NCBI RefSeq assembly: GCF_020036995.1
Contig: NZ_JAIQDD010000010.1
Span: 161,433 to 225,432, forward strand
Length of the DNA stretch: 64,000 nucleotides
Origin: Corallococcus sp. AS-1-12
GTDB lineage: Bacteria; Myxococcota; Myxococcia; Myxococcales; Myxococcaceae
Direction: 5' to 3'
This document shows positions 14,966 through 32,093 of this stretch, piece by piece. The position numbers and the translations under genes were made by a program. Below the pieces are notes generated by a model that was given only the letters and a program-made list of their open reading frames with translations, made no database searches and was not told the DNA's origin. Every line of letters begins with the position of its first letter. The stretch's first letter is position 1.

Positions 14966-15013
14966 GGCCAGGACTACGCAGGGGGCGAGCGGGCGGTTAC
15001 AGCCGGGCCCGGC

Positions 15014-15634
15014 TCAGCGCGGCGCGTAGTTGTGGCTCAGGTCGAAGACGAGCGTCTTCACGATGGGCGGGATGGAGAGCTCGATGCGGCCCCGGTTCAG
15101 GTCTCCGTGGGTGACCTGGTAGGAGAGGCCGCCGAACTCGTCATCGAAGGTGTAGTTGTCGTTGTCGAAGATGGAGATTTCGAGCGGGTAGCGCTGCAGG
15201 TTGGAGGTGATGATCTGGCAGCCGCCGGTGCGCCATTCGGGATCCCAGCTCTCGCTTTCCTCGGTGCGGGTGCGTTCGGGAGCGGAGGGGCAGTTCATCT
15301 CCACGACGACGTCCGGCGGGGAGCCGTCGGAGTCCCAGTCCTCGCCCGTGTCCGGGTCGGCGTCCGCGATGGTGGCGTACCGGGGCTGGATGAAGGTGCG
15401 CATCACGCCCACGTAGCAGGTGTGCTGGTCGAGCCGGCAGACACTGCCCTCCGCGCAGGGTTCACAGACGCTGCCATCGGGGCCGCATTCCGAGTCGCTC
15501 CGGAACGAGATGCACTCGTTGAACGAGGAGCAGCACCCGTCCGCGCAGTTCTCCGGGGTGCAGTCGTAGGGACCGCAGGCGGGGAGCCACAGCGCGCACA
15601 TCAGGATGAACAGCCAACCGCCGAGGACTTTCAT
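15014..15634 (-). CDS. Cys-rich secreted lipoprotein, paralogue A of a two-member family in this window
   Basis: Lipobox LPAC. Fourteen Cys in the N-terminal 60 residues. Shares DWDSDGSPPDVVVEMNCP and the ...RTFIQPRYATIA block with the ORF at 19704-20363. Confidence 0.6.
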   Translation of the reverse strand: MKVLGGWLFILMCALWLPACGPYDCTPENCADGCCSSFNECISFRSDSECGPDGSVCEPCAEGSVCRLDQHTCYVGVMRTFIQPRYATIADADPDTGEDWDSDGSPPDVVVEMNCPSAPERTRTEESESWDPEWRTGGCQIITSNLQRYPLEISIFDNDNYTFDDEFGGLSYQVTHGDLNRGRIELSIPPIVKTLVFDLSHNYAPR

Positions 15635-15657
15635 GAGCGCGGTGAACGCTACCCGCT

Positions 15658-16164
15658 TCAGGGCCTTCCGTCCCGGGCCTTGCGTGCGATGGCTTTCTCG
15701 TAGGCGGCCTGAAGCTCCCGGAACACCGAGCGGGAAGGGCGCGGCGCGTCCAGGTGCAGGTGGCGCAACTCCTTCATGAACGCGTCCCAGAGGGGCGGGC
15801 CGCCCTTTTCAAGCAGCTCCGCGCGCACCGAAAGCTCCTCGGTCACCTGCGTGTGCCGGCGGCCCCAGGCGCCCATGTGCGCGAGCAGGGGCACCAATTG
15901 GATGGACGCCTCCGTGAGGCTGTAGATGCCCTTCTGCTGGTGGTTCGGATCCGGGCGGCGCGACAGCAGGCCGGACGCGGTCAGGCGCTTCAGCCGGTCC
16001 GCGAGGATGTTGGAGGCGATGCCCTCCTCGCTCCGGGAGAGCAGGTCGCCGTAGCTGCGCCGGTTCCCGAACATGACGTCGCGGATGACGATCAGGCTCC
16101 AGCGGTCGCCGAGCTGTTCGAGCGTCAGGTTGATGGGGCAGCCGGAGCGCCCTGTCTGCGGCAT
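15658..16164 (-). CDS. HxlR-family winged-helix transcriptional regulator
   Basis: Start taken at the internal ATG (MPQTGRSGCPINLTLEQLGDRWSLIVIRDVMFGNRRSYGDL...), which is the typical HxlR N-terminus. The six-frame ORF runs 68 codons further upstream with no homology. Divergent from the GST gene. Confidence 0.75.
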   Translation of the reverse strand: MPQTGRSGCPINLTLEQLGDRWSLIVIRDVMFGNRRSYGDLLSRSEEGIASNILADRLKRLTASGLLSRRPDPNHQQKGIYSLTEASIQLVPLLAHMGAWGRRHTQVTEELSVRAELLEKGGPPLWDAFMKELRHLHLDAPRPSRSVFRELQAAYEKAIARKARDGRP

Positions 16165-16186
16165 GGCCGTGCTCCTGGGGATGCTG

Positions 16187-16201
16187 CTTGCAGTATGCAA
16201 G
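16187..16201. promoter_or_regulatory. Perfect palindrome CTTGCA-GTA-TGCAAG in the HxlR/GST divergent intergenic region (candidate HxlR operator)
   Basis: The 6-3-6 inverted repeat is seen directly. A direct repeat GCAAGGGGTCG also occurs at 16197-16207 and 16234-16244. Confidence 0.45.
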
Positions 16202-16248
16202 GGGTCGAAATACGGTTCAACCCGTTGTGAAACGCAAGGGGTCGGACG

Positions 16249-16908
16249 ATGTCGCTCGCGGTCTACGGTCACTATTTCTCTTCGTACACGCAGAAGGTGC
16301 TCATCGCGCTGTATGAGAACGGAACACCCTTCGAGTTTCGAAGCATCAGCCCGGAGACGCCGGAGCACTCAGCCGAGTGGCTGCGCCGCTGGCCGCTGCG
16401 CAAGTTCCCGCTGCTGGTGGACGGTGACCGTCAGGTCGTCGAGACGAGCATCATCATCGAGTACCTGCAGCTCAAGCATCCCGGGCCGGTGCGCCTGCTG
16501 CCCGAGGATCCGATGGCCGCGCTGGACGTGCGGTTCCTCGACCGGTTCTTCGACCTGCACGTCATGAACGCGGCCCAGCACGCCGTGGACGGGGCGTTGA
16601 CGGGGGACCCGGTGAAGCGCCAGGACGGGATGAAGCTGGCGGTGGAGAAGCTGGAGCGCGCCTACGGCTGGATTGAAGGGCAGTTGGGTGGCCGGATCTG
16701 GGCGGCGGGCAACGACTTCACACTGGCGGACTGTGCGGCGGCACCGTCGCTGTTCTACGCGGACTGGACGCACCGGATTCCCGAGTCGTGTCCCCAACTG
16801 CGCGCCTATCGTGCGAGGTTGCTCGCGCGTCCGTCCGTGGCCCGCGCGGTGGACGGGGGCCGGCCGTATCGGCATCTCTTCCCGCTGGGAGCGCCGGACC
16901 GCGATTGA
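16249..16908 (+). CDS. Glutathione S-transferase
   Basis: MSLAVYGHYFSSYTQKVLIALYENGTPFEF... N-terminal thioredoxin-like domain plus C-terminal helical domain, 219 aa. Confidence 0.85.
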   Translation: MSLAVYGHYFSSYTQKVLIALYENGTPFEFRSISPETPEHSAEWLRRWPLRKFPLLVDGDRQVVETSIIIEYLQLKHPGPVRLLPEDPMAALDVRFLDRFFDLHVMNAAQHAVDGALTGDPVKRQDGMKLAVEKLERAYGWIEGQLGGRIWAAGNDFTLADCAAAPSLFYADWTHRIPESCPQLRAYRARLLARPSVARAVDGGRPYRHLFPLGAPDRD

Positions 16909-16915
16909 GCGAGGC

Positions 16916-18694
16916 TCAGGGCCGCGGGGGAGGGGAGACCGCGGCCATGATGTACCGGGGCAGGAGCTCCTCGCGGAACTTCCGCCAGAGGGAGACGTGG
17001 TTGTAGTTGCCCGCGGTGAAGAGCACGACGAGGTCCAGCTCCGGGACGACCATCACGAGCTGGCCACCGTTCCCGCTGGCTTCGTACTGCGAATACACCC
17101 GGTCACCGACGCGAAGCTCATGGCGCCACCACGTGTAGCCATAGGTTCGCCCGTCTGGCATCGTCGCCTGTTTCGCGACGGAGCGTTCCACCCAGCGCTG
17201 GCTGACCACGCGCTTCCCGTTCCAGGTGCCGCCGGAGAGGTAGAGCTGCCCGAGCTTCAGGGCGTCACGAGGGCGCATGTAGATGCCGCCACCCAGGTAC
17301 TGCTCACCGTCGGGCATGAGGTCCAGGTGGTAGCCGCGCATCTGGAGGGGCGTGGCGACGTTCTTCGTGAAGAACTCGGGGATCCAGGTACGGGTGGTGT
17401 TGCGGAGGACGCCGCCGAGGAGGTTGATGTTCGCGGAGCAGTACACGGCCTTCCCGCCGCCGGGAGCGCGGACCATGGGGAGGTCCAGCGTGTACTTGTA
17501 CCAATCCGGTACGGAGTCCTCGAGCCGGTCCTCGTTGCCGGGTGACTCTGGATTGTCGTCGTCACAGGCCAGGCCCGTCGCCATGGTCATCAGGTGCGCG
17601 ACGGTGACCTTGCGCTTGCGAGCGTCCAGGTTGGAGAGCTTGCCCTTGTACTCAGGGAAGAGTGAGACGACGGGCGTGTCCACGGTGAACGGGGCGCCCT
17701 GGTCCAGGGCGATGCCGATGAGCAGGGACGCATAGGACTTGGAGGAGGACCGCAGGTCGTGGGGACGCTCCTTGTCGAAGCCCTGGAAGTACTCTTCGAC
17801 GATGAGCTTTCCGTGGCGCGCGATGAGCAGGCCCTGGATGGCGGGCACGGACTCCGGGCTCGGTTCCTGGTCGAGGATGCGCTGCACGAGCTGCTGGAGC
17901 GGCTGGACGTCCATGCCGACGTCCGCAGGGGAGGCCGTGGTCCAGCCATCGTCCTCCGCGATGGGCTTCTGGTAGGCGTAGGGGCCAGGAGCAGGAGTGC
18001 GGGAGTAGAGCCCCACGGCCTGCGAGCGGTCCCGACGAGTGAAGTCGAAGCTCGTGTCAAAGGGAGGGTAGGGGAGAGACAGCCGTCCGGACTGCTCGTC
18101 GAACGTGCCTTCAATCTGGGTGTCACTCTTGGTGTCCGTGAGCCGGACCGTGCGGTCCTGAAGCTCCACACGGAACAGCATCCGGTTGCCGAAGTTCCGC
18201 TCCGGGTTGCGAATGAACGCCGTCACGGAGCCGTCAGGCTGCTTCTGGACGACAAGATACAGCGAGAACCGGTCCTCCAGCGGAGCCACGTTGCCGCGCC
18301 AGACACCCGGCTGGAGCGCGCGCAGTTCCACGGGAGAGGCGAACTTCATGCCGCTCATGAGCACACGCGGTTGGATCCAGTGACCCGTGATGCTCTGACT
18401 GTTCTCCATCAACGTCGCTCGGAGTTCTCCTCCTGGGAAGACGACGGACACCTTGCAGCCCTCGAACCGGGCAGGAACATCGAATCCGCCGATGCGCGCG
18501 CGCCAGGTGTCCCCATGCCGGACCAGCGTCAGCTCACCCTGAACCTGAGGCCCAAGAATACGCTCACTGCCCCAGATGCCCACCAACGCCTCCGCAGACA
18601 CGGGGACAGCGCCGACATGGAAAGGCAGCAGCGCCAACAGGAGCCCGATGAGCCTTCGGGAGCTGGAGTGCACGGTGGATGCGTGGAGGGTCAT
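16916..18694 (-). CDS. Secreted serine hydrolase of the beta-lactamase/PBP-like superfamily
   Basis: Signal peptide. SSSKS (S-x-x-K) active-site motif after an N-terminal ~270-aa extension; 592 aa. Confidence 0.7.
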   Translation of the reverse strand: MTLHASTVHSSSRRLIGLLLALLPFHVGAVPVSAEALVGIWGSERILGPQVQGELTLVRHGDTWRARIGGFDVPARFEGCKVSVVFPGGELRATLMENSQSITGHWIQPRVLMSGMKFASPVELRALQPGVWRGNVAPLEDRFSLYLVVQKQPDGSVTAFIRNPERNFGNRMLFRVELQDRTVRLTDTKSDTQIEGTFDEQSGRLSLPYPPFDTSFDFTRRDRSQAVGLYSRTPAPGPYAYQKPIAEDDGWTTASPADVGMDVQPLQQLVQRILDQEPSPESVPAIQGLLIARHGKLIVEEYFQGFDKERPHDLRSSSKSYASLLIGIALDQGAPFTVDTPVVSLFPEYKGKLSNLDARKRKVTVAHLMTMATGLACDDDNPESPGNEDRLEDSVPDWYKYTLDLPMVRAPGGGKAVYCSANINLLGGVLRNTTRTWIPEFFTKNVATPLQMRGYHLDLMPDGEQYLGGGIYMRPRDALKLGQLYLSGGTWNGKRVVSQRWVERSVAKQATMPDGRTYGYTWWRHELRVGDRVYSQYEASGNGGQLVMVVPELDLVVLFTAGNYNHVSLWRKFREELLPRYIMAAVSPPPRP

Positions 18695-19716
18695 CGAATG
18701 CCTTTGGTTCTGGATGTTATAGCCCGGTCATGCGATCCGACCTGGCAGAACGCTGGCTCACACCCGATGGTCAGCGCCGGCGCGAGCGCTTGATCGCCTC
18801 GGGATTTCAAGGACCCTGGCGTGAAGTCCTCAAGGGCTTTCCGGGAGCAGATGCATTGGGACCCCACGTGGGGGATCTCCGAGGCATCGACCTCGCTCAG
18901 GAAGAGCTACCGGGCGCGGAGTTCGTTCATGTTCGGCTCGATGGCGCCCGCCTGGATGACTGCGGGCTCAACGAGGCGCGGCTCGACTTCACCACGCTGT
19001 CTGGTGCCTCGCTGACCTGGGCGCGCATGGAGCGCGCCAGCCTGATGGCTTGCGCCGCGATGGCCACGTGCTGGGACGATGCTTCCTTGGAAGGGGCAGT
19101 CCTCACGGCTTCAAACCTGGTTCACGGCTCATTCCGTCGCGCCCGACTTCAGGGCGCCCGTTTGACCGCAGCGACGTTGATGAAGGCGGACCTGCGCTGC
19201 GCTGATCTCCGAGGCGCGGAGTTGTCCTTCTGTGACATGGAGGAAGCGTGCGTCGCGGGTGTTCGCACGGATCGGCCTCGCACCTATGGGCGGGCAGGGC
19301 TGGGCAATGCGGACGTGAGCTATTACCGGGATCATGGCGGGTACCCATCATTCATGGATGCCATCCTGCTCGACCCGGGTATGCGCGCGCTCCGATGGTT
19401 GGACAGGAAGGAAATCCTGATGCATGTGGAAGCAGCGGTCGAGATGAGCCCCGCGGTGGATGCTGAAATCCTCGCGCTCCTCCTGGATCCAGAATTTGAG
19501 GCAGCGGCGCGCTTACGACTCGAGGCCCCGGATGAGCTGCGGTACGAGGCTGCCTCCAGCCTCATGTGGGCTCTTGGCTTGGATCAAAGCAAGAATGTGT
19601 GGGGACGCTCAGGGGTGTCGATTTGTCAGCGCTGGATGGCAAACCTCCGCAAGAACATGGCCGCCAGCATCCAAAAACGCTGGCGGCGGGCCGAGGTGTC
19701 CGTCTATTCGGCGTAG
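18679..19716 (+). CDS. Pentapeptide-repeat protein
   Basis: Runs of A(D/N)L.x pentapeptides (ARLDDCGLNEARLDFTTLSGASLTWARMERASLMAC...ADLRCADLRGAELSFCDMEEAC). An alternative ATG start is at 18730. Confidence 0.6.
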   Translation: MRGGSSNAFGSGCYSPVMRSDLAERWLTPDGQRRRERLIASGFQGPWREVLKGFPGADALGPHVGDLRGIDLAQEELPGAEFVHVRLDGARLDDCGLNEARLDFTTLSGASLTWARMERASLMACAAMATCWDDASLEGAVLTASNLVHGSFRRARLQGARLTAATLMKADLRCADLRGAELSFCDMEEACVAGVRTDRPRTYGRAGLGNADVSYYRDHGGYPSFMDAILLDPGMRALRWLDRKEILMHVEAAVEMSPAVDAEILALLLDPEFEAAARLRLEAPDELRYEAASSLMWALGLDQSKNVWGRSGVSICQRWMANLRKNMAASIQKRWRRAEVSVYSA

Positions 19717-20363
19717 TATGTGGTGATCTGGAGGGCCAAGGAGAGCAACGCACCGGAACTCGTGAACTCCACGACGCCACGGTCAATGTCGGCTCGGGTC
19801 ATCTGATACTGCGCAGACGCAATCGGGTCGTCAAAGAGGGTGTCAACGTCAATGACGGTGAACTGGATGGGGGCCGAAAGCAGATCGGTACTCAGGACGT
19901 CGCATGCCCCCTGCGTCCACGTAGGGGTGAAGCTTTCAACTTCCTCCGAAGGGGGCGCAGGCTGTGCGTTGGGACAGGACAGCTTGACCACGACATCCGG
20001 TGGCGAGCCATCTACGTCCCAGTCACTGTTGTCAGCAGGATCCTGCGGAGCGATCGTGGCGCGCAGGGGCTGGATCTTCGTGCGAATGGTGGGAGTGTAG
20101 CACTGTTGCTGTGACGGATGGCAGATGGTCCCGGTCGCGCACTTCGCGCATTTGGTGCCGGTAACACCGCACGCGTCGTTGGTACGAACTTCGACGCACT
20201 GGTTCGTGGTCGGATCGCAGCAGCCTGCACAATTCGCTGCAGTACAGATTTCTTCGAGTGGCGGGTTCTCCGTGATGGGGCCTGAGCTTGAGTCTTCGGG
20301 CCCACAGCCTGATAGCAAGAGAATCGACGTCAGCCCAAGAAGAATTCGGTTTTTGAATGTCAT
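19704..20363 (-). CDS. Cys-rich secreted lipoprotein, paralogue B
   Basis: Lipobox LSGC. A Cys-rich N-terminal region. Shares DWDVDGSPPDVVVKLSCP and the ...TPTIRTKIQPLRATIA block with 15014-15634. Visibly lower GC than paralogue A. Confidence 0.6.
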   Translation of the reverse strand: MTFKNRILLGLTSILLLSGCGPEDSSSGPITENPPLEEICTAANCAGCCDPTTNQCVEVRTNDACGVTGTKCAKCATGTICHPSQQQCYTPTIRTKIQPLRATIAPQDPADNSDWDVDGSPPDVVVKLSCPNAQPAPPSEEVESFTPTWTQGACDVLSTDLLSAPIQFTVIDVDTLFDDPIASAQYQMTRADIDRGVVEFTSSGALLSLALQITTYYAE

Positions 20364-20369
20364 TGATTG

Positions 20370-22097
20370 TTAGTTGAGGTGGAGAACCAACACGCGGGTG
20401 CCTTTGTCCATGCGAACTTCAGCGGTGACCATCCGAGTCACAGGAATGCTCGCGACCTGCGCCCTTCTGTTGCTGGGCGTGGGCGTGATGACGATGGGCG
20501 CAGGGTTCGGATACCCCAGGGCCGTGATGGTTGGGGCATCCGCGTAGCCCACGAGGTACAGGGATCCATCCGAGAGCGCGCGATGAAGCTCAATCCCCTC
20601 CTGGATGGGGCCATAGATGGGTGTGTCCGCGCTGTAGGTGGGAACGGTGCTCATCGGTACAAACGCGTAGCGTCCCCTGGGAAGCTGCGAGACGCGAGCC
20701 CCACGCTCGGCGTCCGAAGCGGCGACGACCTGATGCTGCTGGCGAACGTTTCTGAGCGTGCTCGCGAGTGCCGGGACCGGAGCAGCCGTCGGGGGCTGCG
20801 GCTGGACAGGTCTCAGATTGCGCGGAGTCTGAACGACAAAGACGTCATTGTTGACGCTTTTGCTCGGGGATGGCCAGACCGCTGCCACGCCGCCAGCAAT
20901 CAGCGCGGCAGCAGCAAACAGCAGGATTCTCTTGGAGCCTGATTTCGAAGGGCTGCCTGTGCCGTCCGTCTTCGGAGCGGACCGGGAAACGGAACGATCC
21001 GAAGCGGAAGGCACAGGCTCGGGTGGCTTCGCCGCACTTGAGTGGGGCGAGGTCGCCGGCCCAGGGGCTCTGGTGGCCGAGGCGATTGGGATGGATGGCG
21101 ACGGTGGCTGTCGGACTGTGCTTGGAGGGGGCGACTGCGGGGCAACGGATGCGCCAAAGTGTTGACGCAGTTCAGGGAAGAATTTGTGGCAATCGATTCC
21201 GCCATAACAACGAAGCCCTTTGTTGCCTCGTAAATTGGCAACCCTGCTGAAGAGCGTCGGATTGCAGGCCTCGATTACAGCGTCATTCTTCTCGTAGAAA
21301 CCCCAGAGGATGTCGACATCCTTGTGTCTGTCGACGTCAATCGCCGCGAGTGTCTGGGTGAAGACATCGTCCCATCCGCCGTATCCGATAACGACAAGTG
21401 TGTGGCTTTGAAGGATCTGGATCAGCTCCGCAGAGACGAGTTTGCGCTCGCGACCAAGCTGGATGCCAGTGTGCAACGTAGGCGAGTCATGCCAGTAGCC
21501 GTGAAGGTGGATGATGTGCGTGGATTTGGAAGAGGAAGGAACCGTCTGCCCGAACGGGCTGTCGTGAGTCACGATCGTGCGATGGAAATCACCGCCAGCC
21601 ACCTTCACCGATGCTGAGATGAGGGGATCAAAATTCGTGGTCAAGACGGGGCCAAACGTATCGGCTCTCTCCACCAGCAATCTTCCGAGATGCTCCGTCG
21701 CCGGAGGTAAGGCCCATCCGCCATAATCCAGATCCAGTTCGTCGTCAGTCGCTACTCCATCGCGTTGGCGGTCCACCCGTGCGCGAAGCACAGCCTCTCG
21801 AACAACCTTCTCGGAGACTTTCTTGTCCTCAAGGCCTTGCACGAAATGCATGGCCCATTGGTATCTGTTCTCTTTGGTGTGCTCGCGCTCCGTGTCGAAT
21901 CTCGCCTTGAATCCGGTCGGGACGTGCTCGCGGATGAGATCCAGCATCGCCTCTACCCCAGGCACCTGGGGGGCGTCGGCTCGTTCCTGCGTCGACAAGG
22001 GGGAACCGACCAGAAACGCGATTTTCCGGCTTTTGGCGGCAGTGATGACAGCGTTGGGGAGAGCATCCTTGGGATGCAGGAACGAATAGGAACTCAT
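20370..22097 (-). CDS. SIR2_2-family (defence-type SIR2/NADase-like) protein with a Pro-rich linker, one TM helix and a ~190-aa extracytoplasmic C-terminal domain
   Basis: Motifs IAFLVGSPLS, VLTTNFDPLIS, IIHLHGYW and LVVIGYGGWDDVF match the SIR2_2 signature blocks. TM helix KRILLFAAAALIAGGVAAVW. GC is much lower than the window average. Confidence 0.75.
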   Translation of the reverse strand: MSSYSFLHPKDALPNAVITAAKSRKIAFLVGSPLSTQERADAPQVPGVEAMLDLIREHVPTGFKARFDTEREHTKENRYQWAMHFVQGLEDKKVSEKVVREAVLRARVDRQRDGVATDDELDLDYGGWALPPATEHLGRLLVERADTFGPVLTTNFDPLISASVKVAGGDFHRTIVTHDSPFGQTVPSSSKSTHIIHLHGYWHDSPTLHTGIQLGRERKLVSAELIQILQSHTLVVIGYGGWDDVFTQTLAAIDVDRHKDVDILWGFYEKNDAVIEACNPTLFSRVANLRGNKGLRCYGGIDCHKFFPELRQHFGASVAPQSPPPSTVRQPPSPSIPIASATRAPGPATSPHSSAAKPPEPVPSASDRSVSRSAPKTDGTGSPSKSGSKRILLFAAAALIAGGVAAVWPSPSKSVNNDVFVVQTPRNLRPVQPQPPTAAPVPALASTLRNVRQQHQVVAASDAERGARVSQLPRGRYAFVPMSTVPTYSADTPIYGPIQEGIELHRALSDGSLYLVGYADAPTITALGYPNPAPIVITPTPSNRRAQVASIPVTRMVTAEVRMDKGTRVLVLHLN

Positions 22098-22136
22098 CGA
22101 GGGCGAACGCTATCAGAACCGCAGGCGGGGCCTAAT

Positions 22137-23702
22137 TCATGCGGCTCGCTCACTTGGTCGACCTTGTTCCTCCTCTTGGAGTGCCAATGTCTTCCGGTAT
22201 TCCGCAGCCTCGGCCGCCCGGGTCAGTTCAAACTCACCGTGATGCTTGCGGACTGCCTCCGCGATCTCATCCAGGCCGACGCGGAAGAACTCCTTTCGCT
22301 CATTGATGCGGTTGACTCGCCGGTTCGCGAAGGCCTTGTGCAGGGCGTTCTCCAGGGCAGGGGCGTCCGAGGTCCGGATGATGGCGTGGACATCGAACTC
22401 GAACGGCACCGAGGCATCTCCAAGTTCATCGATGCGGTCCTGGGGGACCAATCGTCGGGTCATCCCCAGCTTGAACACGCCCTCGCCGAAGGAACCAATA
22501 TTGGAGATGACGTAGACGTGCCCGGTGCGGGTGAGCTGTGCCTGGGAGATGGCGCGCTGCTTCTCCATGTCTTCTGCCACACGGCGCTCCAGCTCCGCGA
22601 TGCGCTCCATCAGCTTCTGCTGCTCCGAGCCCTTCGCCTGCTCGTAGTCCGCCCGCGCCTTGGCCAGCGCTTCTGCATCGCGCTTCGCTTCGCGCTCCGC
22701 TTCCAGCTTCGCCTTCTCCAACTCGCGTTGGGCGGCTTCCTCCTCACGCATCTGCTCCCGGATCCGGCGCTGCTCGTCACGCTCCTGCTGCACCTTCTCC
22801 TCGTACTCGTACGCGAGCATCAGCTCCTCGACCTTGAGCTTGACGTAGCGCCTGGCGATGACGCACTGCTGGATCTCCGCGAGACCATTGATGGCGGCGG
22901 CTGCCTTCTCGATGCGCGTCTCCATGGCCTTGACGTTCTTGTAGGACACCTTCGCTACACACGCGTCCGCCTCGCCATTGAAGGCCCGGAGCATCAGCTT
23001 CAAGGTCCGCTCAATCTGCTTCTTGCCTTCCGCCTTGCTTCCATTCACTTCCCACTGAATGGAGCACGTGGCGGCTTCCTTGTTCTTCAGCATCTGCTTC
23101 TGAGCGTCGCGGATCTTCTCCAGCCGGTCCTCGTACTCCTTGACCGACGCCAGCGCGTACACCGGTTTGTAGAAGCCGAAGGAGAGCAGGACCTCCTCTT
23201 CCTCCAGTGCCTTCAACTCGGCCCTCAGGCGGGCGATGCCTGACTCCAGGTTGGTCCGCTCAGCGTTCGCCTGCTTTCGACGGGCTTCTGCCTCCTCCAT
23301 GGCGCGCGTCGCGCTTTGCGTCGTCCGGCTCGTCTCTTCGCGGAGCCGGTTCAACTCCGCTTTCGCTCGGCCCTGCTCAGCGGCGATGGCCTGCTCAACG
23401 TCCGCTTTTGCCCGGGCAAGCTCGGTCTCTACCCGCTTCCGCTCCGCCGCCAGTGCACTGTCCGCTTCGCTCCGTGCCTTCGCCAAATCGTCCTGGACCC
23501 GCTTCTGTTCCGCGGCCATCGCGGTGGTCGCGTCCGTGCGGGCCCGCGTCAACTCCTCCGCGACCCGGCGCCGTTCGGCCTCCAGGTCCAGGATGGGCTT
23601 GAATCGTTCCTGGACGGCTTTGAGCCGGCTCTGTGTCCGCAGCCACAAGCCAAGGAGCAACAGGCCCAGAATGCCCAGGCCAATGGCGATGATCGTTGTC
23701 AT
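22137..23702 (-). CDS. Membrane-anchored coiled-coil / DUF4041 / T5orf172 (MUG113, GIY-YIG-like nuclease) protein
   Basis: Start at the internal ATG (MTTIIAIGLGILGLLLLGLWL = N-terminal TM helix), 13 nt after the upstream stop. It has ~180 aa of coiled coil, a DUF4041 block (LLSFGFYKPVYALASVKEYE...LRAFNGEADACVAKVSYKNV) and a T5orf172 block (GHVYVISNIGSFGEGVFKLGMTRRLVPQDRIDELGDASVPFEFDVHAIIRT...RINERKEFFRV). Confidence 0.75.
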   Translation of the reverse strand: MTTIIAIGLGILGLLLLGLWLRTQSRLKAVQERFKPILDLEAERRRVAEELTRARTDATTAMAAEQKRVQDDLAKARSEADSALAAERKRVETELARAKADVEQAIAAEQGRAKAELNRLREETSRTTQSATRAMEEAEARRKQANAERTNLESGIARLRAELKALEEEEVLLSFGFYKPVYALASVKEYEDRLEKIRDAQKQMLKNKEAATCSIQWEVNGSKAEGKKQIERTLKLMLRAFNGEADACVAKVSYKNVKAMETRIEKAAAAINGLAEIQQCVIARRYVKLKVEELMLAYEYEEKVQQERDEQRRIREQMREEEAAQRELEKAKLEAEREAKRDAEALAKARADYEQAKGSEQQKLMERIAELERRVAEDMEKQRAISQAQLTRTGHVYVISNIGSFGEGVFKLGMTRRLVPQDRIDELGDASVPFEFDVHAIIRTSDAPALENALHKAFANRRVNRINERKEFFRVGLDEIAEAVRKHHGEFELTRAAEAAEYRKTLALQEEEQGRPSERAA

Positions 23703-23715
23703 GGATGTCTCCTGT

Positions 23716-26700
23716 TCAGGCGCTGACGGCCCGCATCTGATGCTCCACCGGGGACTCTTCACGCACGACGGCTGGCAGCTCAGCCGCCTCCTCCCGAAGG
23801 AGCTCCTCGACGCGCGCGACGATCCGGGCGACCTCTTCTGAAGGCGAGCGGAACCAGTCCGTGGACCAGATGCGGTGAAGCTTCCACCCCAGGCCCTTCA
23901 ACACCTGGTCCCGGAGCCGGTCCCGGTCCCGCGCGGAACGCGACGAGTGGTACCGCTCGCCGTCACACTCGACACCGAGGATGTACCGGCCTGGTTGCTG
24001 GGGATGCCGGAGGGCCATGTCGATGAAGTAGCCCGCAACGCCTACCTGCGGAACCACCTCGAAGCCCCGCGCCGCGAGCGCCTTCGCGACGGCGATTTCG
24101 AAGTCGGAATCCGGTGGACGGCCGCTCCCCACGCCGTGCGCCACCTTCTCTCCCTTGGCTTCGGACAGGTACCGTTGCAGGACGCGCATCCCACGGGGAC
24201 TGCTCTCCTGGACCTTGAGCTGTGACGGGTCGAAGGACGCGAACACCGTCAGTGCACACCGCGCCCTCGTGAAGAGGACGTTCAACCGGCGGTATCCGTC
24301 CGCCTGGTTGATGGGCCCGAAGTTCATCCGGAAGCGCTCGTTCTTGTCGGGACCGAACGTGACCGACACGAAGATGGCGTCGCGCTCGTCGCCTTGCACG
24401 TTCTCCAGGTTCTTCACGTCGAAGGGCATGGGTGACTTCTCCCACTTCGCCAGGAAGGCTCGGAGGGTCGCGTCGTTCTTCTCCTCGGCAGTCACCAGGT
24501 CGTCGATGAGATCCCGCTGCTTCGAATTCAGCGTGACGACCAGCAGGCTCTGCTCAGGACGTGTCCGCGCGTGCTCCTTCACCTTCGCCAGCACTTCGCG
24601 GGCTTCGGGGACGTTTCGGTTGGACTCGTACAGTCCTCCGTCCACTTTGTGGAAGCGCAGCCCCAAACCTTCCAGTTGCTCACCCGGTGCAGGGAAGGTG
24701 ATGAGGTCGCCGTTGTAGAACTCACGATTGCTGAAGGCGATGAGCGAGGGGTGACGTGAACGGTAATGCCAGCGCAGCATGCGCATGGGGAACCGCTCCG
24801 CCGCCGCCGTGAGGATGCTCTCTGAATCCTCCAGGAAGGACGGGCCCTGAGCCTCGTCTCCCGCCTCGTCGTTGGACTCTGTGTCCTCCTGTTCCATCTG
24901 GGCGAAGAAGCTGGTGGGAGGGAGTTGCTCCGGGTCGCCCACTACCACCAACTGTCTCCCTCGCGCGATGGCGCCCAGCGCATCTTCGGGACGCATCTGG
25001 CTGGCCTCGTCCATCACGACCAGGTCGAAGGTCAACTGGCCGGCGGGCAGGTACTGGGCGACCGACTGCGGACCCATCATGAAACACGGCATCAGCGTCT
25101 GGAGCGCACTGCCGGCACGGGCGACCAGTTCACGAATGGGGAGGTGCCGCTGCTTCTTTCCCAACTCGTGCCGCAGAAGATGGGTCTCCGTCATACCCGC
25201 CACTTTCGCCGAGGACACACCCGGAGGAACCGGACGCTGGCTGAGTTGACGTGCCAGGTATCGGCCCTGCCTTTCGATGCAATGCGTGTCCAGGCGTGCG
25301 AACTCCTCTCTCTGGGAGGCATGAACGGCGCCCGTGAACTGGTCGAGCTCGGGTTGGTCTCGCAGGATGGCTTCCGCCAGGGAGCGGAAGAAGACAGCGT
25401 CGAAGGCCGCGACCAGCCGTTCCGGCTCCAGGCCCGGACGTGTGTCGACGCGCTCCAGGAACCCAGCGGTGCTCCGCGCTCGCGCGACGGCACGCCGCTG
25501 CCGTTGATACGCGCACCAGGCTGGAAGCGTCGCGGACTGGCTTCGGGCCTGGCGCAGTCGCAAGACCGTCGATTGGAGCGGCTTCTCGGCGGCGAGATCC
25601 TCCCAGGTGCCCTGGGCCATCCTTCCCAGCTCCCGGGCTTGGGTTGCGGACTGTCTGTAGGCACTGAGGGCTGTCTCCAATTCGTTCGTGATGGCGAGCA
25701 GGTCCGCGTGCCTTCGTGGCGTGTCCTCTCGTAGCAGCCACTCCGCCAGCCCTTCAGGGAGCGGCGCCGCGAGGAGGTCATCAACATGTCGGAGGATGCT
25801 TCGGGGACCCGCTAGGGAGGTTTTCCGCCCCTGGTAGGCCACCCCTGGCAGGGTCGCCGCGGAAGCGTGCGCTTCCAGCCGGTCTGCGGCTTCGCACGCT
25901 TCACGCACCCGGCGCAGTTGTCCCTGGAGTTGGGAGAGGGTCAGGGACGGCGGGGCATCTCCCTTCCGTGCCCAGTTCAGGACCTGGCTCAGGTGCTTCA
26001 GCAGGGCGTCGAGGCTGTCCTGGGCCTTTCCGCAGGACTCGGTGTTCCAGGGGGCGCTCGGCAGCCCCATGCGCGTCGAGGCTTCTTGCACGAAAGTGCT
26101 TACGTCTCGGACTTGGGACAGTTCTTCGCTCTTCGCGCGGACCATCGCCAGGATCTCGCGCCAATGGCTCGGGGAACGCTCCAACACTGCTCGGCGTAGC
26201 TCCAAACCTCGCTCACCCATGGGGAGGATCAATGCGTCGATGTTCCGGTATGCGTCCAACCACGAAAGGATTCGGTCGAAGCGTGTCTCGACCCCCTGGA
26301 AGCGGGCGCCAAGGGTCGCTTTCAAGGTCGCGTCCTCCTGGAACCGCTCCCGTGCCGCGTAATGAGCCAGCAGGTCGTTGTAGCCCTGAACCAGTACGGG
26401 CCTTGTTGGACGTACGCCATGTGCCATGGCCTGGAAGTCCCGCCGCGCGGCGCGCCAAGCGCTCGAGAGCCAGGGGATGAATTGCGCGGTTGAAACCGCA
26501 ACCGCATGGGACTTGAGCGTCGCGAGGGGAGGAACGAGTTCGGGCATGAAGCGCACCGCGAGCGCCCGTGCCTGATCTTTCAATTCCGTACAGGTGCTGT
26601 CAGCCTTCCGAAGTGTCTCCTCGGCTTCGCGTTCGATCCAGCACGGGTCCCGCCACTCCAAAGTGGTGTCGTCCAGGGCGGCCATCGCCTCGACGACGCG

Positions 26701-28914
26701 GGCGAAAGACTGGAGCTGCTGGGGCGTCCAGCGCGTGACGTCGACTTCCAGGCGGGAGGCCACGTCGGCCGCGAACCGGCGAGCCTGCGCCAGGATTCGA
26801 GCAGCGGCCTCCACCGCTTCATGCGCGCGCGTCAGTGTCACGAGCGTGGTGTCAGGCGAGAGCAGACGCAGGGCCATGTCGAGGACGGCTTCCGCGCCGC
26901 GCAGCGCGGACGCGGTCAGGTCTTCCTGGGCACGCCAGCCTGCCTCCAACCCCGCCCACCGGGCCTGGACCGCTTCAATGGCATCAAGCAGGGCTCGTAA
27001 TCCCTCTCTCTGCGTGGAATCGAGCAGGGCAGGGACCAGCGTCGCGGGAGTCCCTTCTGGAAGCCGTGGCAGGACTCGGACGTTGGAGATCAGCGCATCC
27101 ACCGCGAGTGCGCTCGAGCTGGGCGTGACGCCCGTGCGGACGGTGAAGGCCGCCAGCGCCTTCTCCAGGAGCAGCGCGGACTCCTCCCAGGTGGCGATAC
27201 GCTGAACGAGTGTCTGACGGTCCTTGTCGGTCAGCGCATCGTTCGTCACACCCGCCCAGGGGTGGGCACTGAGGATGGGCGCGACGCGGCGAACATCCCC
27301 AAGCTGCGCCGCGAGACTCCGAACCGCGTCGCGAACCTCCGATAGCGCATGGGTAGACATGCCTTCGGCGCCCTCGAAGCGGAGGCCTTCCAGCTCCACG
27401 ACCGCGTCTCCCAGTTCCGATTCCGCGCGACTGACCTTCCAGAACACGTCATGCGGTGACATGCCGAGTGTCCCGAACGGCTTGTGCATTCGCTCGGTAT
27501 GCGCGCGCAGGATGCCCGCCGCGTTCGAGACCTGTTCGGTGAGCGGGCGGGGAGCGGTCGCGCTCGCATCCAGGTTGAGTCGGCGACGCAGGTCCTCCAT
27601 GAACTGCTGTTTCTGGGTCTTGTGGCTGTGCAACTCCAGGCAGAACTCGCCGAGCCCCGCATGCTGGAGGCGGCGTGAGACGACCTCCAACGCCGCCAAC
27701 TTCTGCGTGACGAACAGCACGGTCTTGCCCGCCGCCAACGCCGCGCCAATGAGGTTGGTGATGGTCTGTGATTTCCCGGTGCCGGGCGGCCCTTGCACCA
27801 CCAGATTCTCGCCCCGGAGCACGTCCACCAACACGCTGTGCTGGCTGCTGTCCGCGTCCGTGATGAGTGGCGGCGGATTGACCTCTTGCGAGTCCAAATC
27901 GTAGACCTCGCTCCGGCGCTCCCGGCTGCCCCCGCCACCTCCGCCAGGTTCGTTCGCCTCCGCCTGTCCTCCCATCAGCGTCCGGACGAGCGGGTTCGCC
28001 AGCATGGGACTGTTCTGAGGCCAGCGGCTGGGCTCCAGGTCCCGCCACATCAGGAGCCGCCCGAAGGACAGGAGCGTCAGGGTCACCTGCCGCTCCAGGC
28101 TCCAGCCAGGGCGCAGGCCTTTGAGCAGCGCCGTCACCTTGTCGAAGTACGCCTCCAGGCCCTCCTCCGCGGAGAAGGCCGGCAGCGTGATGCCGAACTC
28201 CTGCCGCAGCTTCTCCTGGAGCGTGAGGTTCGAGTCGATGGACTCGCCTTCATTGTAGTCCACCTCGTAGGAGTGGACCTGCGTCTCCGGGTGGGCCTGG
28301 CCGCGTTTGAGACTCACCGGCATGAGCACGAGTGGAGCGCTGCGAGGCTTCTCCTGCCGCGTGTCGCCGGACTCGTACCAGCGCAGGAACCCGAAGACGA
28401 AGTGGAGCAGATTGGCCCCGGTCTCCTGGATGGCCGTTTGCGCGAGGCCCTGGAGTCGGTGCAGGTGGCTCTCCAGATCTTCCGGGAAGTACAACGTCTG
28501 GAGGTGGCGGTCCTGGTGCTTGCGAGGATTGCTGCCGCTCTCTGCCGGGACCGCCTTGGGCAGCTCATACCGGGTATCGATGCCGAGCTTCTTCGCCTGT
28601 TGAAGCAGCAACTTCTGCCGGGCGTCCTTGCTTGGGGCCTCCTCCGTCGTCATCGAAAACACCACCGTCGCGGCGGCGGGATCGAAGTCCTCCTCTTCCT
28701 CGGAGGCTTGCTCCGGTGGCATCACTGGAAGGAACGTGAGCGCGCGGTGGTTGCTCAGGCGCTCGAAGACGACACCTGGCAGTTCATCCACAATGCGCAG
28801 CGACGTCCGGGCCGTGTGCTTGAAGTTGAGGAGTCGGTTGGTTGCGCTCAAATCCAGCAACCGGGTGCGTTGCCGCTGAAGCTCTTTCAGCAGGACCGAG
28901 TCGTGCGGATTCAT
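23716..28914 (-). CDS. Giant DUF4011 / Upf1-like SF1 helicase (AAA_11+AAA_12) / Vsr-like (DUF559, PD-(D/E)xK) endonuclease / DUF3320 protein (Hhe-like)
   Basis: Start at the internal ATG (MNPHDSVLLKEL...). Walker A GPPGTGKSQT, DEAD-like VVMDEASQ, LRWHYRSRHPSLIAFSNREFYNGDL, and C-terminal YILGVECDGERYHSSRSARDRDRLRDQVLKGLGWKLHRIWSTDWF (Vsr/DUF559 signature). 1733 aa. Confidence 0.8.
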   Translation of the reverse strand: MNPHDSVLLKELQRQRTRLLDLSATNRLLNFKHTARTSLRIVDELPGVVFERLSNHRALTFLPVMPPEQASEEEEDFDPAAATVVFSMTTEEAPSKDARQKLLLQQAKKLGIDTRYELPKAVPAESGSNPRKHQDRHLQTLYFPEDLESHLHRLQGLAQTAIQETGANLLHFVFGFLRWYESGDTRQEKPRSAPLVLMPVSLKRGQAHPETQVHSYEVDYNEGESIDSNLTLQEKLRQEFGITLPAFSAEEGLEAYFDKVTALLKGLRPGWSLERQVTLTLLSFGRLLMWRDLEPSRWPQNSPMLANPLVRTLMGGQAEANEPGGGGGGSRERRSEVYDLDSQEVNPPPLITDADSSQHSVLVDVLRGENLVVQGPPGTGKSQTITNLIGAALAAGKTVLFVTQKLAALEVVSRRLQHAGLGEFCLELHSHKTQKQQFMEDLRRRLNLDASATAPRPLTEQVSNAAGILRAHTERMHKPFGTLGMSPHDVFWKVSRAESELGDAVVELEGLRFEGAEGMSTHALSEVRDAVRSLAAQLGDVRRVAPILSAHPWAGVTNDALTDKDRQTLVQRIATWEESALLLEKALAAFTVRTGVTPSSSALAVDALISNVRVLPRLPEGTPATLVPALLDSTQREGLRALLDAIEAVQARWAGLEAGWRAQEDLTASALRGAEAVLDMALRLLSPDTTLVTLTRAHEAVEAAARILAQARRFAADVASRLEVDVTRWTPQQLQSFARVVEAMAALDDTTLEWRDPCWIEREAEETLRKADSTCTELKDQARALAVRFMPELVPPLATLKSHAVAVSTAQFIPWLSSAWRAARRDFQAMAHGVRPTRPVLVQGYNDLLAHYAARERFQEDATLKATLGARFQGVETRFDRILSWLDAYRNIDALILPMGERGLELRRAVLERSPSHWREILAMVRAKSEELSQVRDVSTFVQEASTRMGLPSAPWNTESCGKAQDSLDALLKHLSQVLNWARKGDAPPSLTLSQLQGQLRRVREACEAADRLEAHASAATLPGVAYQGRKTSLAGPRSILRHVDDLLAAPLPEGLAEWLLREDTPRRHADLLAITNELETALSAYRQSATQARELGRMAQGTWEDLAAEKPLQSTVLRLRQARSQSATLPAWCAYQRQRRAVARARSTAGFLERVDTRPGLEPERLVAAFDAVFFRSLAEAILRDQPELDQFTGAVHASQREEFARLDTHCIERQGRYLARQLSQRPVPPGVSSAKVAGMTETHLLRHELGKKQRHLPIRELVARAGSALQTLMPCFMMGPQSVAQYLPAGQLTFDLVVMDEASQMRPEDALGAIARGRQLVVVGDPEQLPPTSFFAQMEQEDTESNDEAGDEAQGPSFLEDSESILTAAAERFPMRMLRWHYRSRHPSLIAFSNREFYNGDLITFPAPGEQLEGLGLRFHKVDGGLYESNRNVPEAREVLAKVKEHARTRPEQSLLVVTLNSKQRDLIDDLVTAEEKNDATLRAFLAKWEKSPMPFDVKNLENVQGDERDAIFVSVTFGPDKNERFRMNFGPINQADGYRRLNVLFTRARCALTVFASFDPSQLKVQESSPRGMRVLQRYLSEAKGEKVAHGVGSGRPPDSDFEIAVAKALAARGFEVVPQVGVAGYFIDMALRHPQQPGRYILGVECDGERYHSSRSARDRDRLRDQVLKGLGWKLHRIWSTDWFRSPSEEVARIVARVEELLREEAAELPAVVREESPVEHQMRAVSA

Positions 28915-29019
28915 GGAGGTGCCCCCCGGGTCGTCATGGGTGGGACGACCTGGCACCCAGGTTCTGGCGCACTCTTCGCCGCGGTTGCATCCCCCGTGCG
29001 GGTGATTGACACCCGCACG

Positions 29020-29063
29020 AAAACGCCGCCTCGCTTCCGGAGGACCGGAAACGGGCGGCGTTC
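29020..29063 (-). terminator. Rho-independent terminator downstream of the ABC-F gene
   Basis: On the minus strand: GAACGCCGCC...GGCGGCGTTTT, a 9-bp GC stem with an inner CCGG palindrome followed by a T-tract. A second perfect 10-bp hairpin (CGTGCGGGTG-ATTGA-CACCCGCACG, 28996-29020) follows immediately. Confidence 0.6.
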
Positions 29064-29088
29064 GCACTGCCTCGTCTTGCTGTGCCGA

Positions 29089-32093
<3,005 letters not shown>

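Follow-up and report, generated by a model that had tools for sequence, protein, structure and literature searches.

The locus analysed here consists of two adjacent genes on the minus strand of the window, i.e. the whole stretch of 64,000 nucleotides of Corallococcus sp. AS-1-12 DNA that was studied. The first gene (20370..22097, minus strand), defined from the list of open reading frames and its translation, starts with ATG and encodes a protein of 575 amino acids made of a SIR2-type domain, a linker, a single transmembrane (TM) helix, a tether and a C-terminal domain (CTD). This reading frame is not a chance one, because its product is matched by 124 database proteins at E ≤ 1e-3 and is 98% identical to a ‘SIR2 family protein’ of Corallococcus coralloides. 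The second gene (19704..20363, minus strand) encodes a predicted lipoprotein of 219 amino acids. Just 3′ of its stop codon lies a terminator-like hairpin (19660..19687, minus strand) with a 12-bp stem that includes eight G–C pairs; it is only suggestive of a likely end for a two-gene transcript, with a weak T-tail and a scan in which such sites are about as numerous as in shuffled sequence.

The GC content of the first gene is 60.3% versus 69.7% for the window, while that of the lipoprotein gene is 58.8%, and GC3 values range from 0.52 to 0.74 in the unit versus 0.83–0.95 in the flanking host genes. An initial annotation, made from the sequence alone, had credited the first gene with the lowest GC content of the window and with patches near 50%. 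The 1-kb bin 21001–22000 is indeed the window minimum (58.9%), and 150-bp minima of 49–50% occur at 21151–21325, inside the first gene, and at 20226–20450, mostly in the 5′ part of the next gene. However, the minimum is shared with the lipoprotein gene, the overall value of which is slightly lower.

Architecture of the SIR2 protein

The SIR2-type domain, assigned to the cytoplasm, covers residues 1–315 (21153..22097, minus strand), as delimited by Pfam SIR2_2 (PF13289), homology and profile searches. The Pfam match spans residues 151–253 (31.2 bits versus a gathering cut-off of 24.5, E = 2.8e-7) and scores 32.8 bits when the N-terminal part is taken in isolation; SIR2 homology extends over residues ~7–315 in 120 homologues. 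The catalytic-type residues are N155 in a TTNFDPL motif (codon 21633–21635, minus strand) and H199 in an HLHG motif (codon 21501–21503, minus strand). Both are invariant in alignments A1 (12 sequences) and A3 (23 sequences) and are aligned with those of solved SIR2 proteins, so that the catalytic Asn/His pair expected of a SIR2 domain is kept. Reaching these structures required a profile, since a single-sequence search of the PDB with the domain gave no match. The profile matches FAM118B (E = 1.7e-5, with the TTNFD and HIHG motifs aligned) and the Sir2 superfamily chains 8jkz/8in8 (E = 1.9e-3, with the TTNFD of 8jkz_A aligned), and weakly KomC (E = 0.78).

The best non-orthologous SIR2 matches, 34–42% identical over residues ~7–315, are found at the N terminus of STAND-type NTPases with NB-ARC/TPR domains, and the relatives P0019, P0020, P0046 and P0051 carry PF00931/PF13191/TPR domains. 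Among PADLOC models, those of pAgo-associated SIR2 and PDC-S65 are matched over the SIR2 core only (residues ~143–270 for the pAgo models). Pfam finds no domain besides SIR2_2 in the 575-residue protein and no cytoplasmic sensor domain. We infer that the SIR2 domain would act as an NAD+-hydrolysing enzyme.

Downstream of this domain, a low-complexity linker rich in Pro, Ser and Ala (residues 316–390; 20928..21152, minus strand), assigned to the cytoplasm, was recognized by its composition (20% Pro, 22% Ser and 17% Ala in residues 316–398); in the alignment, its length and sequence differ between homologues. The TM helix (residues 391–408; 20874..20927, minus strand) was located by Kyte–Doolittle analysis, in which ILLFAAAALIAGGVAAVWP (residues 391–409) is the sole strongly hydrophobic 19-mer, with a value of 2.15 and no other segment above 1.6. 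Of the 14 best homologue clusters (P0001–P0014), 12 have a helix at the same position, down to 32% identity. Within 15 residues of the helix, four Lys/Arg residues precede it and one follows; summed over 36 related proteins, 111 such residues stand before and 67 after, a modest bias. One hydrophobic helix, no cleavable signal peptide and a positive-inside bias are thus the features displayed, and the product fits a bitopic inner-membrane protein. The N-in/C-out orientation is argued for by the single conserved helix, the lack of a signal peptide before an NAD-using domain and the Lys/Arg bias, which support the earlier proposal of a cytoplasmic SIR2 domain and a C-terminal domain outside the membrane.

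A Pro-rich tether (residues 409–444; 20766..20873, minus strand), identified by reading the sequence and predicted to be periplasmic, connects the helix to the CTD (residues 445–575; 20373..20765, minus strand), an α/β domain. The layout proposed in the initial annotation, i.e. an N-terminal SIR2_2 domain followed by a Pro/Ser-rich linker, a TM helix and a C-terminal domain, is borne out by Pfam, composition, hydrophobicity and AlphaFold. The C-terminal part, estimated there at ~190 amino acids, in fact comprises 167, divided into the tether of ~35 residues and a folded core of ~130 residues (445–575), within which falls the peptide YLVGYADAPTITALGYPNPAPIVITPTPS quoted in that annotation. This region is folded rather than disordered, with residues 441–575 modelled by AlphaFold2 at a mean pLDDT of 90.2 and a pTM of 0.84.

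Residues 409–575 have no match in Pfam even at E = 10, and Foldseek comparison of the CTD with the viral structures of BFVD gave none at E ≤ 0.001. A profile search retrieved 525 proteins, 81 of them at E ≤ 1e-10, and the signature residues of the domain are R452, P473, G475, F479, E503, H505, R506, G517, P552 and R555. The motif R452...E503-x-H505-[KR] is strictly conserved across all CTD classes. Such conservation speaks for a site that binds an unchanging small ligand or a metal, or for a catalytic role, rather than for recognition of variable phage proteins. No CTD relatives were found in GenBank phages (tblastn), IMG/VR viral contigs or JGI metagenome contigs, in scans with few peptide patterns that constitute weak evidence of absence. 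A clear TM helix occurs in 29 of 33 long CTD members, with a median gap of 31.5 amino acids between helix and CTD, and 67 of the 147 top matches are proteins of ~140 amino acids without TM helix or signal peptide. To judge from these predictions, the CTD superfamily is not intrinsically periplasmic. Since many of its relatives are soluble, a ‘sensor’ role is not established, and the CTD could be a sensor or instead an anchor or a partner-binding module.

The partner lipoprotein and the exchange of effectors

The product of the second gene, a predicted periplasmic lipoprotein, combines a disulfide-rich module with a C2 domain. Its N terminus, MTFKNRILLGLTSILLLSGC20, combines a basic n-region, a hydrophobic core and the sequence L-S-G-C, in line with the lipobox pattern [LVI][ASTVI][GAS]C (signal peptide and lipobox L-S-G-C20 at 20304–20363, minus strand). 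C20 and G21 are invariant in alignments A4 and A5 and conserved to at least 90% in A6. The module that follows contains 10 conserved Cys (about 20094–20303, minus strand) and precedes the C2 domain (19707–20093, minus strand), the β-sandwich of which is recognized by a fold match. With Pfam C2 (PF00168), the window copy stays below threshold (15.7 bits versus a cut-off of 22, E = 0.018), while 22.4 bits are reached by its paralogue at 15014–15634 and 41 bits by the relative P0286. D116, D123, D172, D174 and D179 are invariant in 17 sequences, D118 and D178 only in the eight sequences of A4; these Asp clusters are suggestive of those typical of Ca2+-dependent, membrane-binding C2 domains.

A lipoprotein gene lies immediately downstream of the effector gene in all six loci reached through the CTD, namely L001 and L002 (SIR2), L004 (TIR), L005 (Metallophos), L032 (PNP and EAD5) and L033 (LmuA-like), and also in the window, L007–L009, L017 and L026. 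The order from effector to lipoprotein is strictly conserved, and the two genes, 6 nt apart in the window, overlap by 4 nt in L002 and L032. Pairwise identities of the CTD and of the lipoprotein are correlated (r = 0.89, Mantel p ~5e-4; r = 0.48 without the Corallococcus pairs), and on this sequence comparison the two are co-inherited. Solitary members of the lipoprotein family also exist with no CTD gene near, and in none of the 16 loci yielded by a lipoprotein scan of JGI metagenomes does a CTD gene precede the lipoprotein gene. The unit occurs sporadically, and at some sites a transposase-like gene or defence genes lie next to it. PD-Lambda-1 and Hhe, single-gene defence systems that adjoin it in three Corallococcus species, were rejected as components, being missing near L001, L002, L004, L005, L017, L026, L032 and L033.

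The N-terminal domains of the 36 long CTD members include PNP_UDP_1 (7), TIR (5), SIR2 (5), FAD-type Rossmann (4) and Metallophos (2) domains. In the long proteins the CTD comes after a TM helix and behind five effector types (SIR2, TIR, PNP nucleosidase, calcineurin-like phosphoesterase and LmuA-like). The PADLOC models of defence effectors matched by these domains are the PN-superfamily effector of CBASS for PNP (E = 1e-28), PDC-S60 and the endonuclease-type effector of CBASS for Metallophos, LmuA of Lamassu for the FAD-type domain (E = 9e-91), and ThsB-like and pAgo-associated TIR models for TIR. The CTD and the lipoprotein are, on these assignments, the constant module, and the attached cytoplasmic effectors, predicted to kill the cell or degrade nucleotides, vary between related loci. 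Five effector types before the CTD, together with a conserved downstream lipoprotein gene, give indirect support to the idea of a periplasmic sensor.

A candidate envelope-coupled mechanism and its alternatives

The preferred reading, with a probability of roughly 0.5, is that the two genes serve abortive infection or conflict in a manner coupled to the envelope: the CTD and the lipoprotein, paired in the periplasm, would control the clustering and activation of a cytoplasmic NADase. In resting cells, this pair would hold the tethered SIR2 domains apart or inactive. An envelope event would then alter the CTD–lipoprotein interaction or that of the C2 domain with the membrane, the candidate triggers being phage adsorption or genome injection, outer-membrane or peptidoglycan damage, and altered lipid or Ca2+ exposure. 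The proteins would cluster, and their flexible tethers (~75 amino acids in the cytoplasm and ~35 in the periplasm) would let the SIR2 domains assemble; hydrolysis of NAD+ would lead to growth arrest, as in abortive infection. With one long disordered tether in the cytoplasm and another in the periplasm, no rigid conformational relay could operate, and a signal could pass only via clustering, release or localization. Antiphage sirtuins are commonly activated via a change of multimeric state, filaments included (PMC12700824).

A more far-reaching proposal, put forward tentatively, is that the CTD and a Ca2+/lipid-binding C2 lipoprotein form an unrecognized receptor module. The CTD, with its new fold, would sense the envelope event and the clustering of effectors of the TIR, SIR2, PNP, phosphoesterase or LmuA type would by itself carry the signal across the inner membrane, following a logic like that of single-pass TIR receptors such as Toll-like receptors (TLRs); TM+CTD proteins of prophages would act as decoys, the model being P0134, an effector-less TM+CTD protein encoded three genes past an endolysin in a prophage-like gene run. 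To our knowledge, nearly all characterized SIR2, TIR and PNP immune effectors respond to cytoplasmic cues (phage proteins, nucleic acids or signalling nucleotides). The unit thereby raises a testable question, namely whether NAD+-depletion immunity can be triggered outside the cytoplasm, upon breach of the envelope. If so, a function would be found for a domain family of >500 members that has neither Pfam entry nor structural relative, as well as a role for one of the few bacterial C2 domains, and a defined candidate system would be added for Myxococcota, the immune repertoire of which has been little tested. The five outputs carried by one CTD module provide built-in controls.

The envelope event may come from other bacteria instead of phages. 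The unit would then serve social or inter-bacterial conflict rather than anti-phage defence, killing or arresting the cell upon non-kin contact, upon entry of toxins or foreign lipoproteins via outer-membrane exchange, or when a predator or a type VI secretion system attacks. Myxococcota live socially and as predators and pass lipoproteins of the outer membrane to one another, and this alternative is favoured by the distribution of the two-gene unit, seen almost only in Myxococcota, to which all its named sources belong. It also draws on the gene neighbourhood: outside Corallococcus the neighbours are mostly not recognizable defence genes, which makes the support from genomic association weak, and defence-island enrichment is not supported there, the sole matches being a generic Ser/Thr kinase and a QueC-like gene. 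More generally, sets of SIR2, TIR and PNP effectors are known from conflict systems of multicellular bacteria (PMC7159879, PMC8195603). Against this alternative, a rather unlikely one, stand the proximity of PD-Lambda-1 and Hhe in Corallococcus, and the fact that an effector anchored in the inner membrane faces the producer’s own cytoplasm, so that only the producer would be harmed; the results are nevertheless compatible with both this reading and the anti-phage one. As for distribution, the social and predatory conflicts of Myxococcota could account for it equally well.

It is unlikely that the CTD and the lipoprotein are simply an anchoring or localization device that holds the effector at a set place in the envelope, e.g. 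a bridge from inner to outer membrane, with activation by a cytoplasmic cue or by proximity to incoming phage DNA or proteins. Such a device would agree with the long flexible tethers, which make conformational signalling unlikely, with the membrane-binding nature of C2 domains and with the position of P0134 near an endolysin; the topology of a type II inner-membrane protein paired with a lipoprotein is like that of phage i-spanin/o-spanin. Yet SIR2, TIR and PNP domains act on soluble NAD+ or nucleotides and would gain no obvious benefit from a fixed place, and a cytoplasmic cue is hard to reconcile with a 575-residue protein without cytoplasmic sensor domain. Moreover, the homologue P0014 retains the SIR2 domain and the TM helix and carries a different ectodomain, an exchange often seen in sensors.

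The tight coupling of the genes, their strictly conserved order with the effector first and the co-variation of CTD and lipoprotein would also suit a guard or addiction device resembling toxin–antitoxin pairs. The lipoprotein would continuously restrain the effector through the CTD, and the NADase would be freed when the lipoprotein supply fails, be it through host shut-off, because the lipoprotein can no longer be matured or sorted, or because the locus itself is lost; the effector-less TM+CTD copy in a phage region could serve as a decoy. This proposal, an improbable one, modifies the main model and offers no separate mechanism of its own. Housekeeping signalling, with SIR2 as a protein deacylase or ADP-ribosyltransferase that adjusts physiology when the CTD binds a periplasmic metabolite, is highly improbable: the invariant polar CTD motif suits a small ligand and one soluble CTD relative is encoded 3 bp upstream of sucA–sucB, but the domain is of the SIR2_2 class with N-terminal effectors of STAND-type NTPases as closest relatives, its place can be taken by TIR, PNP, Metallophos and LmuA-like effectors, and it belongs to a low-GC unit of sporadic occurrence, in places beside transposase-like or defence genes.

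Comparison with known systems

The unit looks uncharacterized and the CTD family undescribed. The two-gene unit is absent from PADLOC, and a literature search found no described system combining SIR2/TIR–TM proteins with a lipoprotein and no myxobacterial C2 lipoprotein. The SIR2-STAND proteins (Avs5 or AVAST type 5-like) resemble the first gene product in their SIR2 subtype and in having an N-terminal effector before a C-terminal regulatory part. In these relatives SIR2 is followed by PF00931 NB-ARC, PF25199, PF13191 or TPR domains, whereas the protein described here has a TM helix, a periplasmic domain and a lipoprotein partner; Pfam detects neither a STAND/NB-ARC NTPase nor a repeat sensor in its 575 residues, and Avs5-like membership was rejected. 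Other assignments were discarded likewise: Thoeris ThsA, with no SLOG or Macro domain in Pfam and no ThsA/ThsB match in PADLOC for the protein or its neighbours; SPARSA, with no APAZ or pAgo, a PADLOC match restricted to the SIR2 core, and PD-Lambda-1 and the lipoprotein as neighbours; and DSR and SIR2-HerA, the partner domains or genes of which are missing (no HerA and no DSR C-terminal domain). The defence SIR2 NADases (ThsA, DSR1/DSR2, SIR2-HerA, SIR2-APAZ/pAgo and KomC) and human FAM118B have in common with the first gene product the SIR2_2-type signature, with the Asn of TTN-x-D and the His of H-x-HG. Activation by assembly recurs among these NADases (PMC12700824), and none of them combines a membrane tether, a periplasmic domain and a partner lipoprotein.

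The exchange of effectors is reminiscent of the conflict systems described by Kaur, Burroughs, Iyer and Aravind (2020/2021; e.g. EACC1 plus caspase, ‘System 4’), in which a constant component is likewise associated with variable TIR, SIR2, PNPase and calcineurin-type effectors. One CTD member carries EAD5, and a taxonomic bias towards myxobacteria-like organisms is common to the unit and to these systems. The constant component differs, being the CTD and C2 lipoprotein in the unit and EACC1, vWA-MoxR, a GTPase or a STAND NTPase in those systems, and a term search of the two papers found no relevant mention of a lipoprotein or C2 domain. The membrane-associated two-gene system of EACC1 and caspase (2020) was considered and set aside, its components being different. 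Compared with the C2 domains of eukaryotes (synaptotagmin/E-Syt, cPLA2 and perforin), that of the second gene is bacterial, predicted to be periplasmic and lipid-anchored, and fused to a 10-Cys module.

In terms of function, the candidate envelope-coupled system is analogous to Zorya (ZorAB), Kiwa (KwaA) and SNIPE, in which a membrane protein with a periplasmic part links an envelope event of phage entry to a cytoplasmic effector (reviewed in PMC13434031). The resemblance is a functional analogy only: PADLOC v2, which predates SNIPE, gives no match to Zor, Kwa or similar models for the SIR2 protein or the lipoprotein. Zorya, Kiwa and SNIPE act through nucleases or DNA-binding effectors and let the cell survive, whereas the unit would combine effectors degrading NAD+ or nucleotides with a lipoprotein partner.

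Architecture and topology of the SIR2 protein

The gene at 20370..22097 (-) is present as initially annotated: its codons, which were checked, specify a protein of 575 aa that shares 98% identity with a C. coralloides 'SIR2 family protein', while the gene adjoining it is 99% identical to that of strain KYC2213 (NZ_CP172866.1). The N-terminal SIR2_2 domain is recognized by Pfam (31.2 bits versus a curated threshold of 24.5, residues 151-253), and homology to other proteins spans residues ~7-315. The best non-orthologous matches are N-terminal SIR2 domains (34-42% identity) partnered by NB-ARC, PF25199, PF13191 or TPR modules, namely STAND-type NTPases. The Asn and His of the SIR2 site have not been lost, since Asn155 (TTNFDPL) and His199 (HLHG) are invariant in the alignment of the membrane-tethered SIR2 group (A1) and likewise among 23 short SIR2 relatives (A3). 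The A3 profile aligns both motifs with the structure of human FAM118B (E 1.7e-5) and with Sir2 superfamily chains 8jkz/8jl0/8in8 (E 1.9e-3), and matches the KomC SIR2 NADase weakly (E 0.78). Because the motifs align with solved structures and PADLOC matches (pAgo-associated SIR2, PDC-S65), restricted to the SIR2 core, are obtained, the domain can be assigned by sequence to the defence-type SIR2_2 class, and is probably an NADase.

The core is followed by the Pro/Ser-rich linker noted initially (composition over residues 316-398: 20% Pro, 22% Ser, 17% Ala) and by a single hydrophobic helix, ILLFAAAALIAGGVAAVW (residues 391-408, Kyte-Doolittle 2.15). Of the 14 best homologue clusters (P0001-P0014), 12 have a detected helix at residues ~380-414, P0007 falling slightly below the cut-off; metagenomic proteins with only 32-34% identity to the query are among them. 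Four K/R residues lie just before the helix and one just after, and totals for 36 related proteins are 111 on the N side versus 67 on the C side. Ahead of the NAD-using domain there is no signal peptide, and N-in/C-out is the only sensible predicted topology. The C-terminal part predicted outside the membrane measures 167 aa instead of the ~190 aa first estimated, and consists of a Pro-rich tether (409-444) and a conserved core (445-575), hereafter the CTD. This region is not disordered, as indicated by an AlphaFold2 model of residues 441-575 (pLDDT 90.2, pTM 0.84, built from eight aligned sequences only), in which three short helices and seven strands make up an alpha/beta domain. On the predicted topology, the protein is bitopic: its SIR2_2 domain lies in the cytoplasm and a folded domain belonging to a new family in the periplasm, each joined to the membrane helix by a flexible tether. 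The low GC content reported for the gene also stands (60.3% versus 69.7% for the window), but the patches near 50% are not confined to it: of two 150-bp patches at 49-50% GC, one lies inside the gene and the other, at 20226-20450, mostly corresponds to the 5' part of the next gene.

The CTD family and its effectors

The CTD has no Pfam match even at E 10, no match in a fold search among predicted viral structures and no PADLOC model covering it. Among 1.84 billion representative proteins searched with a CTD profile, 525 relatives score E <= 1e-3, of which 81 reach E <= 1e-10. Across 147 relatives a polar signature is kept (R452, 97%; E503, 100%; H505, 95%), together with P473, G475, F479, K/R506, G517, P552 and R555. 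Conservation of this kind looks like a putative binding or catalytic site for a constant partner, and does not look like a surface tracking variable phage proteins. Small proteins devoid of a TM helix account for 67 of the 147 top relatives, and one of them, a soluble 141-aa protein (locus L053, 2132-2557), is encoded 3 bp upstream of sucA-sucB (2-oxoglutarate dehydrogenase E1, then E2), an arrangement also seen in L054-L056. The fold is therefore a general module, not intrinsically periplasmic, and the family includes a housekeeping-linked branch.

When the CTD starts beyond residue 150, a clear TM helix is found in 29 of 33 members, at a median of 31.5 residues upstream. Among 36 long members, the N-terminal domain is PNP_UDP_1 in seven (one with EAD5 too), TIR in five, SIR2_2 in five, FAD-type Rossmann in four and Metallophos in two, the remaining N-terminal parts being without a Pfam match. 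PADLOC groups these domains with defence effectors: PNP with the CBASS PN-superfamily effector (E 1e-28), Metallophos with PDC-S60 and also a CBASS effector, TIR with ThsB-like and pAgo-associated TIR models, and the 'FAD' domain, over positions 3-415, with LmuA of Lamassu (E 9e-91).

Two proteins depart from this scheme. In the metagenomic P0014 (549 aa), SIR2 domain, linker and TM helix are retained but the ectodomain is unrelated (only a weak DUF4829 match, E 0.009), which illustrates how ectodomains can be exchanged behind one effector. P0134 (190 aa; L036, 6001-6573, Corallococcus sp., CP114039.1) is effector-less, with only an N-terminal TM helix and a CTD closely resembling the Corallococcus SIR2-linked one (E 3e-35). 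Its gene is part of a co-directional, prophage-like series of genes, where it comes directly after one for a multi-TM holin-like protein and three genes downstream of a GH19 endolysin (phrog_181, E 4.6e-63); no lipoprotein homologue occurs near it. P0134 may act as a phage decoy or in lysis, or may be a remnant.

Linkage with a C2 lipoprotein gene and genomic context

Six nucleotides past the SIR2 stop codon starts a gene (19704..20363, -) for a 219-aa lipoprotein with a signal peptide and lipobox (LLLSGC20), ten conserved Cys (residues 40-88) and conserved Asp clusters (D116/D118/D123 and D172/D174/D178/D179). Its C-terminal 130 residues, modelled with pLDDT > 90, match C2 domains; the Pfam C2 score (15.7 bits) is below the threshold, which is passed by a window paralogue (22.4 bits) and the relative P0286 (41 bits). 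A terminator-like hairpin (19660-19687) lies 3' of the gene, on weak evidence.

In all loci reached via the CTD protein, the CTD gene is directly followed by a homologous lipoprotein gene, the effector being SIR2 (L001; L002/L003, where the lipoprotein is 40% identical, E 4e-37), TIR (L004), Metallophos (L005), PNP plus EAD5 (L032) or LmuA-like (L033). The pairing also occurs in loci reached via the lipoprotein, not via the CTD (L007-L009, SIR2; L017, PNP-type; L026, unknown N-terminal domain). The C2 lipoprotein gene is obligatorily linked and the defence-type effectors are interchangeable. Pairwise identities of CTDs and lipoproteins are correlated (r 0.89, Mantel p ~5e-4), with r 0.48 once Corallococcus pairs are left out, so that both are inherited jointly while effectors change, physical contact not being proven thereby. 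The reverse pairing fails, since many lipoprotein relatives are solitary. Those of Corallococcus form a sister clade that includes the second Cys-rich C2 lipoprotein of the window, the paralogue with the 22.4-bit score (15014..15634, -; 206 aa, 41% identity to the partner), whose orthologues in other Corallococcus genomes lack an adjoining CTD gene. In C. sicarius (L008, 5785-6408) and C. praedator (L009, 5800-6525), two tandem lipoprotein genes follow the SIR2-TM-CTD gene, the second, directly after the coupled one, being of the 'solitary' clade and orthologous to 15014-15634.

In the window, the two-gene unit follows, on the same strand, two single-gene defence systems: a Hhe/PDC-S37 helicase-nuclease (23716..29067, -; 1783 aa with DUF4011, AAA_11/AAA_12 helicase and MTES_1575 nuclease domains; PADLOC PDC-S37 E 0, Hhe E 5e-285) and PD-Lambda-1 (22137..23762, -; a strong PADLOC match, E 2.7e-153). 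The 541-aa PD-Lambda-1 product combines DUF4041 and a T5orf172/MUG113 domain with a coiled coil and an N-terminal TM helix, and 39 nt separate the end of its gene from the SIR2 gene downstream. The two systems make up a defence island that, with the unit behind it, recurs in C. sicarius and C. praedator. Neighbours are wholly different in L001, L002, L005, L017, L026, L032 and L033, and the two genes therefore travel together as a unit, mostly without recognizable defence genes beside it outside Corallococcus. The GC3 of the unit is 0.62-0.74 in Corallococcus and 0.52-0.55 elsewhere, versus 0.83-0.95 for flanking host genes. In L017, from a Myxococcaceae MAG, an ORF (2147-2977, -) resembling an IS5-type DDE transposase, judged by its N-terminal sequence only, lies just upstream of the pair and would fit mobility of the unit. 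The window itself has a low-GC stretch (~12000-31000; 59-68% versus 70-77% elsewhere) adjoining dTDP-rhamnose genes (rmlA-like, ~11.8-12.7 kb) and containing, besides the defence genes, those for a beta-lactamase-family protein (16916-18694, -), a pentapeptide-repeat protein (18679-19716, +), an HxlR-like regulator and a GST-like protein. A genome scan with a single peptide pattern, the counts of which are lower bounds, found the lipoprotein almost exclusively in Myxococcota. The role of the unit could lie in conflict among myxobacteria or with other bacteria, social or inter-bacterial, instead of in phage defence.

Proposed mode of action and relation to known systems

The CTD/lipoprotein pair presumably controls the effector. 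Given the length and disorder of the tethers, a rigid conformational relay is implausible. Clustering or release is the better fit, in agreement with antiphage sirtuins, which are often activated with a change of multimeric state, filaments included (PMC12700824). Among triggers, an envelope event altering C2-membrane or CTD-lipoprotein contacts is the likeliest; the pair would then act on the effector through clustering or release, with NAD+ depletion and growth arrest as the predicted outcome. We give this functional model as a whole about an even chance; the architecture and gene pairing are much more certain, and the identity of the trigger much less so. Alternatively, the CTD and lipoprotein could, instead of sensing, form an anchoring bridge laid out topologically like a spanin pair, or the lipoprotein could be a restraining 'antitoxin'.

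The SIR2 effector domain is a new member of an already known class. Thoeris, DSR, SIR2-HerA, SPARSA and Avs5 are ruled out, since their defining partners were tested for and are absent, and searches of PADLOC v2, Pfam and full-text literature found no description of the unit, which is judged to be an effector-swapping immune or conflict system with an apparently new sensor module. Zorya, Kiwa and SNIPE follow a similar envelope-coupled logic, a likeness of function; PADLOC gives the unit no Zorya or Kiwa match. The theme of a constant component plus a variable effector is common to the conflict systems of Kaur et al., but the constant component of the unit differs from theirs.
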